64,000 bases of DNA, taken from positions 13,517 through 77,516 of the forward strand of contig JANNIY010000058.1 in the NCBI GenBank assembly GCA_031405455.1, in the 5' to 3' direction. Positions 18,005 through 62,227 of the stretch are shown here, piece by piece. Made by a program: the position numbers and the translations under genes. The notes under the pieces are model-generated. The model saw only the letters and a program-made list of their open reading frames with translations. It was not told the DNA's origin and ran no database searches. The stretch's first letter is position 1. Each line of letters begins with the position of its first letter. The DNA comes from Deltaproteobacteria bacterium (lineage in GTDB: Bacteria; Myxococcota_A; UBA9160; SMWR01).

Positions 18005-19180
18005 ATGGGCCAGGCCGCACACCGCGAAACGCCGGCGAACCGTTGCGAGGACAGCCTCGCGCGGCTGGCGCAGGCCCTGCCGGATGGCGTCGCCCTGGTG
18101 CACGACGGTTGCATCCGCTGGGTGAACCCCGCGTTCGTCCGACTCGCTGGCCGAAGCGATCCCGGCGAGCTTGCCGGAGCCTGTTTCCTCGATCTCTTCG
18201 CCGACGCCGGCCAGGGACTCCCGGATCGCGCGCGGACGCGGCCGATCGAGTGCACGTTGCGCCGCCCGACCGGCGCCGAGCACCGTGTGCTCTGCGAGCT
18301 CACCTGGCCCGAATTCGCTCCGGGCCTCGACGCCTGGCGCTGCGAAGACGTCACCCCATTGCGCTCGCTCGAACGCGAGATTCTGCGCGCGAGCCAGGAG
18401 TTGCACCGCGCAAATCGCGAGCTCGCGTCGTTGCGCGAGGAGTTGCGCGCCGAGCGCGAGAGTCGCGAGGAGTTGCTCGCGGTCGTCAGCCACGAACTGC
18501 GCACGCCGGTGACGGTGATCGGCGGCTATAGCCGCCTGTTGCTGTCGGGCGAGGCGGGACCCCTGACGGAAGAGCAGGGCCGCTTTCTGACGGAGAGCGC
18601 CAAGAGTTGTCAGCGTCTGAATGAATTCATCCAGAAACTGATCGAAGCCTCGCGCGAAAAAAAGGGCGGCGAGGTGCTCGAACTCGGCAGCCACGCGCTC
18701 GCGCCCGTGGTCGAGGCGGTGGTGGAGGGATTGCTTCCGCTCGCCGCCGAGCGCGACTCGCGGCTGTGTGTTCACATCGACTCTGCTGCCGCGCATGCGC
18801 GCTTCGATCCGCTGCGCGTCGAGCAGATCCTCACCAACCTCATCAGCAACGCCATCGAACACGGCGGTCCGAAGCTGACGATCGAAATCGGAGCGCGCCT
18901 GCTGCCGAGCTCGACGGGCGGGCGCCGTTTCATCGAGGTGTGCGTCGAAGACGACGGCGCCGGCGTTGCCGCCGCCGACCGCGAGCGGATCTTCCAACCG
19001 TGGATCCAGGCGAACGCGGGCGGACGCGCCGGCAGCCTCGGGCTCGGGCTCGCGATTTGCCGCCGGCTCGTCGAAGCGCACGGCGGCGCCATTTCTCTCG
19101 GCGAACGCCTGGGCGGCGGCTGCAAATTCACGTTCACGCTGCCCGCGGCGGACCCCGCCCGGCGCGCGTCGGAGCGTTAG
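18005..19180 (+). CDS. PAS-domain sensor histidine kinase (soluble)
   Basis: PAS-like N-terminus (GVALVHDGCIRWVNPAF), H-box VVSHELRTPVTVI, N-box NLISNAIEHG, and G-boxes DDGAGV and GLGLAICRRLVEAHGG. No obvious TM segment. Confidence 0.85.
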   Translation: MGQAAHRETPANRCEDSLARLAQALPDGVALVHDGCIRWVNPAFVRLAGRSDPGELAGACFLDLFADAGQGLPDRARTRPIECTLRRPTGAEHRVLCELTWPEFAPGLDAWRCEDVTPLRSLEREILRASQELHRANRELASLREELRAERESREELLAVVSHELRTPVTVIGGYSRLLLSGEAGPLTEEQGRFLTESAKSCQRLNEFIQKLIEASREKKGGEVLELGSHALAPVVEAVVEGLLPLAAERDSRLCVHIDSAAAHARFDPLRVEQILTNLISNAIEHGGPKLTIEIGARLLPSSTGGRRFIEVCVEDDGAGVAAADRERIFQPWIQANAGGRAGSLGLGLAICRRLVEAHGGAISLGERLGGGCKFTFTLPAADPARRASER

Positions 19181-19182
19181 CC

Positions 19183-20643
19183 GTGGCGAAGACGCGCAGC
19201 CGTGCGAACGCGAAGTCGGCCGACCGCCACGGCAGCAAGCCTGCGCAGCGCTCGCGCATTCTCGTCGTCGATGACGCGGAAGGCATCCGGACCTTCGTGG
19301 CCCATCTGCTCGAGCTGCGCGGCTTCGATGTCGACACGGCCGAGGATGGCCGCAGCGCGCTCGCGTTGCTCGAGGGTGGCGCCGCACCGGACGTCGTGCT
19401 GCTCGACGTGATGATGCCCGGGCAGGACGGTCTCGTGACGCTCGCGCGCATCCGCGAGGCGCATCCGGAAATGTCGGTCGTGATGCTCTCGGTGGTCGGC
19501 AAGACGGGAACCATCGTCGAGGCCATGCGTCTGGGCGCGGTCGACTATCTGAACAAGCCCTTCGAAGAGGAAGAGCTCGAAGCCACGCTCATGAAGGTGC
19601 TCGAGCGCCGCTCGCTCTCGCGCGAGCTGGCTGCCCTCGGCCAGGCGCAAGGTCCATCGGGGGACGCGATCCTCTGGGCGAGCGCCGCCATGCAGCGCGT
19701 GAAGAGCCTGCTCGAGCACGTGGCCGACACCAACGTCACCGTCCTGATCCAGGGCGAGAGCGGCTCGGGCAAGGAGGTCGTCGCGCGCACGCTGCACGCG
19801 GTTTCTTCGCGCTCGGACGAGCGCTTCGTCAAGGTCAACTGCGCCGCGTTGCCCGAAGACCTGCTCGAGAGCGAGCTGTTCGGCTACGAGAAGGGCGCCT
19901 TCACGGGAGCCGGCTCGCGCAAGCAGGGAAAATTCGAGCAGTCGCACGAAGGGACCATCTTCCTCGATGAGATCGGCGAGATGAGCCAGGGGCTTCAGGC
20001 GAAGCTGCTCCAGGTGCTCCAGGACGGCCGCTTCTCGCGCCTCGGCGGCAACGAAGAAATCGCAGTCGACGTGCGCGTCGTGTGCGCCACCAACCGGAAG
20101 CTCGATGCCATGGTGCGCGAAGGCACGTTCCGCGAGGACCTGTTCTTCCGGATCAACGTCGTCACCGTCATGCTTCCGCCGCTGCGCGAGCGGCGTGAGG
20201 AGATTCAGCCGCTCATCGACAACTTCCTGCGCTCCTTCGCGGCGCGCTACCGCAAGCCGCTGCCGCGCCTTTCCGAGCGCCTGACGCGCGCGCTCGATCG
20301 CTATGCCTTCCCAGGCAACGTCCGCGAACTCGAAAACATGATGAAGCGCATCATCGTGCTCGAGAGCGAGACGCAGATTCTCGACGAGGTGCTGCGCGCA
20401 GACCGCCGCGGGAAGGTTCCCGGCAGCTCGCTGCTGCGCGTGATCGAAGAGATCGAGGCCACGGCGGGACAGGTTCCCCTGCGCGAGGTGGGCCGGCGTG
20501 CCGCCCAGGAGGCGGAGCGCGAAACCATCGATCGCGTGCTCCACCACACGCAATGGAATCGCAAGCAAGCCGCCCGTCTGCTCGGCGTGAGCTACAAGAC
20601 GCTGCTCCAGAAGATCCGCGACTGCGGACTCGAGCCTCTCTGA
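19183..20643 (+). CDS. sigma-54-dependent response regulator (NtrC/bEBP family)
   Basis: REC domain (ILVVDDAEG...LLDVMMPG...KPF), AAA+ Walker A GESGSGKE, the sigma-54 contact loop GAFTGA, and a C-terminal Fis-type HTH ([21 protein letters not shown]). GTG start lies 3 nt after the kinase stop. Confidence 0.92.
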   Translation: [486 protein letters not shown]

Positions 20644-59761: not shown

Positions 59762-60010
59762 CTAGGTGGAGAGCTTCGCGCGGTCGAGATCGGGTTTCGC
59801 AGAATCTGAAGTGACCCAGGCGCTCGAGTCCTCGCGCAAACCGCGCTTGTGGAGGAGATCCAGCCGCGCCAAGCTGCCGCCGAGCGCGATCGGTCCGATC
59901 AGGAAGAAATAGAACAGCGCCAGGATCACCAGGGTCTGCACGAAGCCAAAGCGCGCCGTGATCAGCATCCAGCCCCGGAACAAACGCTTGTGCGGCGAGA
60001 GCCGTTCCAT
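59762..60010 (-). CDS. SxtJ-family small membrane protein, copy 1
   Basis: 82 aa: MERLSPHKRLFRGWMLITARFGFVQTLVILALFYFFLIGPIAL. GAGGAAG lies upstream. The longer track ORF 59762..60520 is read-through of shadow. Confidence 0.75.
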   Translation of the reverse strand: MERLSPHKRLFRGWMLITARFGFVQTLVILALFYFFLIGPIALGGSLARLDLLHKRGLREDSSAWVTSDSAKPDLDRAKLST

Positions 60011-60021
60011 CGTCTTCCTCG

Positions 60022-60273
60022 TCAGCCTGTCGCGAGCTTCGCACGCTCGAGGTCGGGTTTCGCAGAATCTGATGTGACCCAGGCGCTCGCGCCCGCGCGC
60101 AGTCCGCGCTTGTCGAGGAAGTCGACCCTGGCGAGGGCGCTGCCGAGTGCGATGGGTCCGATCAACAATAGGTAGAACAGCGTTAGGATCACCAGGGTCT
60201 GCACGAAGCCAAAGCGCGCCGTGATCAGCATCCAGCCCCGGAACAATCGCATGTGCGGCGAGAGCCGTTCCAT
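60022..60273 (-). CDS. SxtJ-family small membrane protein, copy 2
   Basis: 83 aa, 68/82 identical to copy 1 in my hand alignment. AGGGGAAG lies upstream of the ATG. Confidence 0.75.
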   Translation of the reverse strand: MERLSPHMRLFRGWMLITARFGFVQTLVILTLFYLLLIGPIALGSALARVDFLDKRGLRAGASAWVTSDSAKPDLERAKLATG

Positions 60274-60468
60274 CGTCGCTTCCCCTTGACCTCTTGGCGC
60301 CCCGCGCTGCGTCAGCCCGGCTCGCGCATGCTCTTCTCGGCAGTCTTCCGATCCAGAGATAATGGAGGGGCGCTAGAGAGTTCCGGTTCCGTCCCGGAGA
60401 TCCTTGCTGCAGCCCTTCCGCTCTTCTGGGAGGGATCGCACCCATCCAGACCGACGAGCCCGACCAGG

Positions 60469-60484
60469 TGCGAGAAGCATGCCA
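60469..60484 (-). promoter_or_regulatory. candidate sigma-54 (-24/-12) promoter facing the sxtJ-carbamoyltransferase-exosortase operon
   Basis: The minus strand reads TGGCATGCTTCTCGCA, with GG-N10-GC spacing and 12/16 matches to TGGCACG-N4-TTGCW. It lies about 195 bp upstream of the ATG at 60273. Confidence 0.5.
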
Positions 60485-60565
60485 CGCGCCGCGATAGGGG
60501 TTTGCCAGCCTCCTCCCCACGCAGAAACCCTCGGATTATCGCGTGGTCGAAGCGAAAATGGAAGT

Positions 60566-60590
60566 TGAACGGAAAAGTCGGGTCCGTTCA
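60566..60590. promoter_or_regulatory. perfect 8-N9-8 palindrome, candidate enhancer (UAS) between the divergent sigma-54 promoters
   Basis: TGAACGGA-aaagtcggg-TCCGTTCA. It lies about 80-105 bp from the minus-strand promoter element and about 105-130 bp from the plus-strand one. Confidence 0.4.
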
Positions 60591-60694
60591 GGGAACAAAT
60601 CTTCCTATCAGTCAATCTACTTCCTATTCACGGAAGACTATTACACACTACGAAGGCGCCCCGCTCCCGGCCCGGCTGGGAAGCTTCGCAGCGC

Positions 60695-60710
60695 TGGCAA
60701 GGAAATTGCT
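60695..60710 (+). promoter_or_regulatory. candidate sigma-54 (-24/-12) promoter upstream of the second sigma-54 activator gene
   Basis: TGGCAAGGAAATTGCT gives exact GG-N10-GC spacing, TGGCA at -24 and TTGCT at -12. It lies 50-70 nt upstream of the ATG candidates at 60761 and 60779. Confidence 0.6.
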
Positions 60711-60760
60711 CAACGAGGTCCGAGTATTCCTCCTTTGGGAGGGAATCGCCTCAGCAACTG

Positions 60761-62227
60761 ATGGAGCAGGGATCGTCGATGCAAACTGAGAAAGAACAAC
60801 GGCGCGCACTGGACCGCTTCCGCGTGCTCGTGATCGACGACGACCCGGGCGTGCGCGACTACATGGAGGCCTTGGTGTCTCGCCAGGGCTACGAAGTCTT
60901 CGCCGTCGCCGATGGCGAGCAGGCGCTCGCCTCGCTCGACGAAACCAAGCCCGATCTCGTCACGCTCGACGTCGTGCTGCCCGGCATGGACGGTCTCGCG
61001 ACGCTCAGTGCGCTGAAGCAGCGCTTGCCCGAGGTGCCGGTCGTGATGCTCTCGGGCCACGGTCAGGCGCGCAACATCGTCGAGGCCATGCGCCTGGGCG
61101 CCTCGGACTTCCTGCGCAAGCCGTTCGAAGTCGAGGAACTCGAGCTGGCCTTCCAGAAGGCGCTCGAAAAGCGCGCGCTCAAACAGGAAGTCGAGCGCCT
61201 GCGCGGCCGGGCGCGCTCCGAGACCGAGCTGCTGCTGCTGTGCGGGGACAACCCGAAGATGAAGGAGGTTCGCGACATCATCGAGCAGGTCGCCGACACC
61301 GACATCACGGTGCTCGTGCGCGGCGAGAGCGGGACGGGCAAGGAACTCGTCGCCCGCACGCTGTTCCAGCTCTCGGGCCGCAACAATCAACCCTTCGTCA
61401 AGGTGAACTGTGCAGCCCTGCCGTCGGAGCTGCTCGAGAGCGAGCTATTCGGGTTCGAGAAGGGCGCGTTCACGGGAGCGCTGAAGCGCAAACTCGGCAA
61501 GTTCGAGTACGCGAACATGGGCACGATCTTCCTCGACGAGATCAGTGAGATGCACCCCGGCCTGCAAGCGAAGCTGTTGCAGGTGCTCCAGGACGGCGAA
61601 TTCTCGCGGCTGGGCGGGGAGGCCGACGTGCATGTCGACACGCGCATCATCGCCGCGACCAACCGCAACCTGGAGGAAGCCGTTGCGGACGGCAGTTTCC
61701 GCGAGGACCTCTACTACCGGCTGAACGTCGTCACCGTGCACGTCCCCCCGCTGCGCGAACGCAGCGACGAGATCCCGCTGCTGGTCGACCATTTCCTGCG
61801 CAAGAACAACGAGCAGTACCACAAGAGCCTGAAGGCCCTGACGTCGTCCACCATGAACATCTTCCTCCAGTACAGCTGGCCCGGAAACGTCCGCGAACTC
61901 GAGAACATGGTCCGGCGCATGGTGGTGCTCGGGAACGAGCAGGCGGTGCTCGAAGAAATCGCCTTGCGCGCCGGCGCCGACAGCAAGGCGGCGGCGGCCA
62001 GCCAGGAGCTCGAAGTCGACACTTTGGGCGCAGATCTCGCGAAGGGCGAAGCGATAGATCTCAAGGCGGTCTCGCGACGTGCCGCTCAAGTTGCCGAGAA
62101 GCGAGTGATCGAGCGCGTGCTCCAGCAGACCCGGTGGAACCGCAAGGAGGCCGCTGAGCGACTCAAGATCAGCTACAAGGCCCTCCTCTACAAAATGAAG
62201 GAGAACGGGCTCTCCGAAGGGCGCTAG
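60761..62227 (+). CDS. sigma-54-dependent response regulator (NtrC/bEBP family), paralog of 19183..20643
   Basis: REC domain (VLVIDDDPG...TLDVVLPG...KPF), Walker A GESGTGKE, GAFTGA, and a Fis-type HTH (NRKEAAERLKISYKALLYKMK). The second ATG, at 60779, has the better Shine-Dalgarno sequence (AGGGA). Confidence 0.92.
   Translation: MEQGSSMQTEKEQRRALDRFRVLVIDDDPGVRDYMEALVSRQGYEVFAVADGEQALASLDETKPDLVTLDVVLPGMDGLATLSALKQRLPEVPVVMLSGHGQARNIVEAMRLGASDFLRKPFEVEELELAFQKALEKRALKQEVERLRGRARSETELLLLCGDNPKMKEVRDIIEQVADTDITVLVRGESGTGKELVARTLFQLSGRNNQPFVKVNCAALPSELLESELFGFEKGAFTGALKRKLGKFEYANMGTIFLDEISEMHPGLQAKLLQVLQDGEFSRLGGEADVHVDTRIIAATNRNLEEAVADGSFREDLYYRLNVVTVHVPPLRERSDEIPLLVDHFLRKNNEQYHKSLKALTSSTMNIFLQYSWPGNVRELENMVRRMVVLGNEQAVLEEIALRAGADSKAAAASQELEVDTLGADLAKGEAIDLKAVSRRAAQVAEKRVIERVLQQTRWNRKEAAERLKISYKALLYKMKENGLSEGR

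Follow-up and report, generated by a model that had tools for sequence, protein, structure and literature searches.

In flocs and biofilms, the protein part of the matrix is produced by exosortase/PEP-CTERM systems, and to our knowledge their regulation outside Proteobacteria is essentially unknown. For NtrC at glnAp2, as for DctD and ZraR, helically phased dyads lie ~80-150 bp upstream of a -24/-12 promoter; dimers of NtrC-family proteins are thought to assemble into the active oligomer, and their sites act in either orientation. Ahead of proteobacterial PEP-CTERM genes, a 17-nucleotide (nt) motif 1 ending in TTTACA was described, with a sigma-54 motif 2 beyond a spacer of 63 +/- 11 nt (together, the PEP-CTERM box); these motifs were assigned to the regulator PrsR by phylogenetic profile, with more regulators and DNA motifs still to be found (Haft et al., 2006, PMC1569441). 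The RpoN dependence of one PEP-CTERM gene was shown in Aquincola (PMC9850573). Here, a window of 64,000 nt (the whole stretch analysed: positions 13517-77516 of contig C58, genome G000) was taken from the metagenome-assembled genome (MAG) of an uncultured Myxococcota bacterium (4.7 Mb, 208 contigs, 68% G+C). The subject is the intergenic gap that begins at 60274 and separates an exosortase operon (minus strand) from the gene of an orphan NtrC-type sigma-54 activator (plus strand, hereafter the local activator). Unless a contig or locus is named, coordinates are those of the window.

With some confidence, we read this gap as a bidirectional sigma-54 control region with a shared dyad enhancer, most likely read by the locally encoded activator. 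Judged from its sequence, the system is one that works like the PEP-CTERM box of Haft et al., with a different motif. In both cases a spacer separates an activator motif, repeated in some instances, from the -24/-12 box downstream of it, and the module stands ahead of PEP-CTERM genes and beside exosortase and polysaccharide genes. Like PrsR, the local activator belongs to the NtrC-type response regulators and has a Fis-type helix-turn-helix, and a PrsT-family (TIGR02917) protein is encoded in the locus, where it adjoins a second, rival activator gene and not the local one. The motif itself differs, being GGAA-N6-TTCC or GGAA-N5-TT[ACT]CACAC as against the 17-mer ending in TTTACA (compared with the published text description and one example from plasmid pDV). 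On pDV, from the PrsK/PrsR organism D. vulgaris, the matching place reads TGTCGGATAGGTTGACA, 77 nt, TGGAACAGTCATTGCT. The spacing differs as well (88-143 nt from dyad centre to box here, on average 63 nt from the end of motif 1 in Haft et al.), and, unlike the PEP-CTERM box, the sites here would also serve as a bidirectional enhancer ahead of a regulator gene and the exosortase operon.

A place in the PrsR/PrsK family was rejected because all scores fall under the cut-offs: no protein of the genome reaches that of PrsR (TIGR02915) or of PrsK (TIGR02916; best score 124 vs 300 bits), and the local activator, at 401 bits vs a PrsR cut-off of 502.6, ranks tenth among the activators of the genome. 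The likeness to NtrC, DctD and ZraR lies in the tandem dyads set in helical phase upstream of -24/-12 promoters; the differences are another recognition sequence, three dyads for two divergent promoters and the absence of an adjacent kinase.

The first-pass annotation had placed a divergent sigma-54 promoter pair in the gap, and this pair is borne out by a genome-trained matrix and by conservation. The minus-strand -24/-12 box TGGCATGCTTCTCGCA (60469-60484) faces the exosortase operon and the plus-strand box TGGCAAGGAAATTGCT (60695-60710) faces the activator gene; the GG-N10-GC spacing is exact in both, and of the two one has 1 mismatch and the other 2 mismatches to TGGCACG-N4-TTGCW. The genome carries rpoN, which was recognised with the Sigma54_DBD model (210 bits) in a 527-amino-acid (aa) open frame of contig C157. 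A plain consensus count stands at chance (9 window matches with at most 2 mismatches vs 9.4 expected), so the boxes are credible only through the matrix and conservation. The matrix was trained on sense-intergenic sites from the same genome and, at 14 bits or more, finds 175 sites per Mb in sense-intergenic, 21 in antisense and 5 in coding sequence; perfect TGGCAC-N5-TTGC sites are intergenic in 29 of 29 cases. With this matrix the plus box reached 15.4 bits and the minus box 14.8 bits, or 13.2 and 12.9 bits, respectively, when left out of training.

Conservation was measured at two depths. In both same-genus genomes the minus box is identical at 16/16 positions and the plus box at 15/16, the identity of the whole gap being 70% (genome 1) and 46% (genome 2). 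Among 50 non-redundant orthologous loci that share a conserved 28-nt block of the gap (described below), boxes were called at 10 or more of 12 consensus positions: plus-side boxes occur in 10/50, 46-48 or 71-77 nt after the block (shuffles 0.18), and minus-side boxes of the TGGYAYGCTTCTSGCA type in 10/50, 121-152 nt left of it (shuffles 0.33). All were in sense orientation and their distances are clustered, with 0 antisense boxes flanking the block in the 50 loci. Upstream of the homologues from the other order of the class, a strong TTGGCACGCTTGTCGCA-type box was present in 12/12 examined. Both -24/-12 boxes are very likely real sigma-54 promoters, with transcription predicted to start near 60458-60459 on the minus strand (leader of ~185 nt) and near 60720-60722 on the plus strand.

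Two observations on such promoters were made elsewhere in the genome. A near-copy of the minus box, CGGCATGCTTCTTGCT, lies ahead of a gene for a 99-aa Cys-rich secreted protein (C29:829-1560, on a contig of 1.8 kb), with GGAA-N5-TTACAGAC ~125 nt upstream. Five further divergent sigma-54 pairs, 138-241 nt apart and most of them high-scoring, were located on C92 (4895/5045 and 10550/10688), C94:23973/24113, C194:4295/4536 and C113:10387/10534; the layout is therefore common in this genome.

An enhancer region between the two promoters had also been proposed, and a conserved dyad array at 60592-60648 would fill that place, the stretch 60591-60650 being the best conserved of the gap in comparison with the same-genus genomes. 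Dyad D1 (GGAA-CAAATC-TTCC, 60592-60605) is a perfect GGAA-N6-TTCC whose GGAA/TTCC columns carry 0.9-1.5 bits, and, measured from its centre, the first base of the plus box is 96 nt away and that of the minus box 114 nt. Dyad D2 (GTCA-ATCTAC-TTCC, 60611-60624) has a degenerate left half, which reads GGAA in many orthologues; its alignment columns carry 1.8-1.9 bits at G -10 and A -7 and 1.5-2.0 bits at TTCC (example: GGAAATAGTCTTCC). Dyad D3 (GGAA-GACTA-TTACAC(AC), 60632-60648) is a variant of GGAA-N5/6-TTCCAC. The GGAA left halves of the three dyads begin 19-21 nt apart. Two repeats listed in the first-pass annotation belong to this array: D1 and D2 have the CTTCCTAT direct repeats (60601 and 60620) as their right halves, and D2 meets D3 in the CTTCC/GGAAG inverted repeat (CTTCC-N7-GGAAG, 60620-60636).

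The TTCC of D2 and the whole of D3 make up the 28-nt block TTCC-N7-GGAA-N5-TTACACAC (60621-60648), which is almost invariant in the 50 orthologous loci (at most 2 mismatches) and identical at 27/28 and 22/28 positions in the same-genus genomes. An alignment of 48 loci anchored on it gave a near-invariant TTCC-N7-GGAA-N5-TT[A/T/C]CACAC(T) preceded by GGAA-N6-TTCC, the conserved G..A before the block reading GGAA in many loci. Three perfect tandem dyads stand at the D2-equivalent place in genome G031, and TACACA is kept even in other-order homologues. Conservation of the array extends throughout the order. The full 40-nt block has no second copy in the genome; only the shorter dyad recurs. Taken together, the three dyads at 60592-60648, and not the palindrome that adjoins them, are very probably the shared activator docking region of both promoters.

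Further conserved elements lie between the dyads and the minus promoter. The half-site TGGAAG (60559-60564) corresponds to TGGAAYA, conserved among the orthologues of the 48-locus alignment, and the stretch around it (60550-60565) shares 94% and 81% of its positions with the same-genus genomes. The element GGATTATCGCGTGG (60533-60546), which reads GATAAT on the minus strand, is 85% identical in both same-genus genomes and recurs as GAGTAT/GATTAT (GAKTAT) in other genera; it could be the site of an architectural protein, as it sits where sites like those of integration host factor usually lie. In other-order homologues (loci L118-L121, L123 and L124), the dyads are replaced by TGAGTAG-N~22-CTACACA upstream of the strong sigma-54 box, the variant of L124 ending in CTACCGC; the binding site and the diverged helix-turn-helix of these homologues may have shifted together.

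The shared enhancer had initially been sought in the perfect palindrome TGAACGGA-N9-TCCGTTCA (60566-60590), on the assumption that the activator binds there. The palindrome is perfect and occurs once in the genome, its distances to the predicted starts (minus ~108-132 nt, plus ~131-155 nt) are typical of enhancers, and one of the same-genus genomes has a compensatory change at a single arm position. It is, however, at chance level: when the gap was shuffled block-wise with its composition preserved, 46 of 300 shuffles (15%) held an equally good inverted repeat (perfect arms of 8 bp or longer around a loop no longer than 20). Its identity in the same-genus genomes (64% and 56%) is at or below the gap background and the arm spacing is altered in one of them. 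The helix-turn-helix of the activator is almost invariant across loci, so its DNA site should be conserved too, yet at the palindrome position the 48 orthologous loci show no enrichment of inverted repeats (mean arm 4.0 vs 3.75 shuffled; 8% of loci reach p <= 0.1). Near the sigma-54 promoters of the genome no second copy or related site was found: the remaining matches are weak and intragenic, and the sole intergenic look-alike (C55:11939) has no sigma-54 box nearby. The palindrome is thus a lineage-specific feature and probably not the shared enhancer; that role for it seems to us scarcely tenable.

Beyond the gap, the dyad was followed through the genome and the class. There are 75 GGAA-N6-TTCC dyads in the genome, 18 of them intergenic. 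For 12 of these 18, a sigma-54 box in sense orientation lies 88-143 nt away (measured from the dyad centre), as against 6% of random intergenic positions; D1, as one such dyad, has counterparts at these distances at 10 other promoters of the genome. Counted from the promoters, GGAA-N5-7-TTCC lies upstream of 12/98 sigma-54 promoters (shuffles 0.6) and GGAA-N5-6-TTnCAC upstream of 8/98 (shuffles 0.1). The targets are five PEP-CTERM genes (C67 twice, C100, C167 and C190), where the fuller consensus is ~GTGGAA-N6-TTCCAC, an exopolysaccharide (glycosyltransferase/chain-length) operon, a few small genes and this gap in both directions. The genome has ~23 PEP-CTERM matches, most of which are without the dyad-plus-box module. 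Because the same dyad and sigma-54 box precede PEP-CTERM genes, the gap connects the operons for exosortase and export with the regulon to which their substrates belong. At C190:2694-6165, tandem GGAA-N5/6-TTCCACT and a sigma-54 box are followed by a PEP-CTERM gene and then by a gene for a 788-aa tetratricopeptide repeat (TPR) protein, a gene order that resembles pepA-prsT of Aquincola.

A composite pattern (dyad, 85-115 nt, GGCAC-N5-TTGC) was found in 89/151 genomes of the class, the reversed control giving 0. It is present in 82/118 genomes of the same order and in 6/32 of the other order. Four of the nine matches checked in G031 and G068 precede PEP-CTERM genes, and tandem dyads ~21 nt apart occur in many genomes.

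Several results weigh against our reading of the gap. The scores of the boxes left out of training fall where the local false-discovery rate is 30-40%, so that the matrix alone is only suggestive and conservation decides. About 60% of the block-bearing orthologous loci have no box at 10 or more of 12 consensus positions, and in a few loci the block is too near the start codon to be an enhancer of the activator gene. Across genomes, the composite pattern does not follow the local activator (69/97 genomes with an orthologue vs 13/21 without, p = 0.44) and is commoner in genomes with the rival activator (47/58 vs 35/60 without, p = 0.009); in these presence/absence counts related genomes are not independent, MAGs are incomplete and some genes are truncated at contig ends. 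As to the missing boxes, some boxless block-bearing loci have degenerate GG-N10-GC elements, and in genus g39 such an element is conserved 33 nt after D3; part of the missing boxes is therefore owed to the threshold.

The array, being more widely conserved than recognisable sigma-54 boxes and lying only ~46-70 nt from the start codon in some loci, might instead be mainly an operator or non-canonical promoter part of the activator gene, serving negative autoregulation, with the sigma-54-like boxes secondary or non-functional. NtrC acts in this way at sigma-70 promoters, and by eye TTCCCA-N17-CACACT loosely resembles -35/-10 hexamers. We regard this as very unlikely: no sigma-70-type promoter passes the scan in the gap or in any of the 50 orthologous loci, the boxes are 15-16/16 identical within the genus and recur in sense orientation only, and the same dyads are coupled to sigma-54 boxes genome-wide. 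No terminator was found in the gap.

The identity of the dyad-binding protein was weighed separately from the control region. The local activator (60779-62227, plus strand) has a receiver, an AAA+ domain with GAFTGA and a Fis-type helix-turn-helix, and aligns full-length to the NtrC (positions 1-462/463), AtoC and PrsR models. Its orthologues are 73-96% identical, with GAFTGA present and the helix-turn-helix nearly invariant. The densest dyad array of the genome adjoins its gene on the upstream side, and the array is kept wherever an orthologue of the local activator was found. The autoregulation or cascade control of the activator gene that had been predicted still stands as a prediction.

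The main competitor is an activator encoded 13 kb downstream on the same strand (C58:90032-91480). It belongs to a trio (C58:88857-94050, equal to L128:11858-17050) of a soluble PAS kinase, this second sigma-54 activator and a PrsT-family TPR protein, in the gene order PrsK-PrsR-PrsT, which ends the same-strand gene string headed by the local activator. Were it to bind, the promoters and dyads would be as described here and the local activator gene would be a target only, in a cascade. The TPR protein (L128:14501-17050), encoded directly after the kinase and activator, passes the PrsT cut-off (320.6 vs 312.2 bits), and it is the presence of the rival activator that the composite pattern tracks somewhat better. 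The rival is 39% identical overall to the local activator and has a different helix-turn-helix, so the dyad is likely to be read by just one of them. In genus g39, however, the rival was found in 0/23 genomes, the composite pattern in 17/23 and the local orthologue in 20/23. Genomes without the rival, such as G031 with its three perfect tandem dyads, keep the dyad array ahead of the local orthologue, whereas no dyad lies near the rival's own operon; the rival too scores below the PrsR cut-off (403.6 vs 502.6 bits). A further kinase-activator pair is encoded at 18005-20643 (activator at 19258-20625). On these grounds, the local activator is the foremost candidate for the dyad-binding protein, at or slightly below an even chance; the rival would have somewhat under a third and another protein the rest. 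A cascade in which the local gene is solely a target is a serious alternative, but an unlikely one.

On our reading, control of the locus would proceed as follows. RpoN-polymerase would bind the divergent boxes at 60484-60469 (leftward) and 60695-60710 (rightward), so that the leftward promoter would serve the sxtJ-like genes and those for the carbamoyltransferase, exosortase and EpsI, and the rightward promoter those for the activator, the polysaccharide exporter and the outer-membrane protein. The three dyads, about two helical turns apart, would be filled by dimers of a single enhancer-binding protein, with the outlying half-site at 60559-60564 flanking this enhancer; the bound dimers would form the active ring and reach the polymerase at either promoter by DNA looping. 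With the local orphan response regulator as activator, the circuit would be a positive feedback loop gated by phosphorylation from some kinase; if another activator of the locus binds the dyads, it would be a cascade.

The predicted leaders were searched for RNA elements. A riboswitch or structured RNA in the gap was rejected (the Rfam whalefall-1 match, at 17.6 bits vs a gathering score of 37, is sub-threshold); neither leader folds better than shuffles (z = 0.36 and -0.04), and the orthologous-locus alignment showed no covariation flanking the invariant TTCC/GGAA positions. A small open reading frame (ORF) in the ~185-nt leftward leader was also discarded, as its ORFs are not conserved and most of this leader is deleted in one same-genus genome. 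At the 5' end of the predicted plus leader, a hairpin UUCCUCC-UUUG-GGAGGGAA (60727-60745) was observed. Wobble and compensatory changes in the two same-genus genomes preserve its stem, and GGGAGGGAA-CGCCTC is seen in other genera too; the hairpin could be an mRNA-stabilising 5' stem-loop. Both leaders contain, on the plus strand, a ~20-nt sequence CTCYTYTGGGAGGGA(A)TCGC (60421-60440 and 60730-60750), which would make the divergent transcripts complementary over this stretch; the sequence is not kept in one same-genus genome, and chance may account for it.

The motifs named in the first-pass annotation were all found where it had placed them, and the drop in G+C content that it had counted by hand (45-50% at 60541-60660) is present, with a minimum of 0.42 at 60550-60649 vs 0.68 genome-wide. 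The length of 487 bp given to the gap is probably too short. Of the two candidate starts of the activator, ATG 60779, with GGAG 11 nt ahead of it, is kept in both same-genus genomes and ATG 60761 is not; the activator thus probably begins at ATG 60779 and has 482 aa rather than 488, which would make the gap 505 bp long (60274-60778).

On the minus strand, the leftward operon is headed by an SxtJ-like gene (60022-60273) for an 83-aa membrane protein, followed by a tandem paralogue (59762-60010; the products have 82/83 aa); the duplication (59762-60273) has a 263-bp period and 86% identity, and a single sxtJ-like copy was aligned in each of the two same-genus loci compared. These two genes are followed by those for a NodU-type carbamoyltransferase, a 61-aa ORF, the exosortase and EpsI, and then by an adenylate-forming ligase and further genes. 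On the plus strand, the rightward operon encodes the NtrC-type activator, a Wza-like exporter of XrtA systems, a TIGR03016-like outer-membrane protein and more. The exporter gene comes next after the activator gene in 71/71 loci, and 37/70 have a divergent sxtJ-like gene on the upstream side of the activator.

The earlier view of the gap changes in one respect: its conspicuous perfect palindrome is not the conserved element, while the type of switch is a familiar one. The GGAA-N6-TTCC box was not found in the literature searched. We put forward tentatively, at slightly less than an even chance, that the local activator is the master switch of the exosortase/PEP-CTERM system across this uncultured Myxococcota order, reading GGAA-N6-TTCC, activating its own operon and that of the exosortase through a single bidirectional enhancer, in a positive feedback loop, and co-activating the PEP-CTERM substrates. 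If this is true, it would be a non-orthologous replacement of PrsR with the same regulatory logic. The analysis offers a wiring diagram for this order, made up of a defined DNA site, two promoters and a short list of activators, in which the two promoters would place the sorting enzyme and the polysaccharide exporter under joint control with the genes of the substrates.

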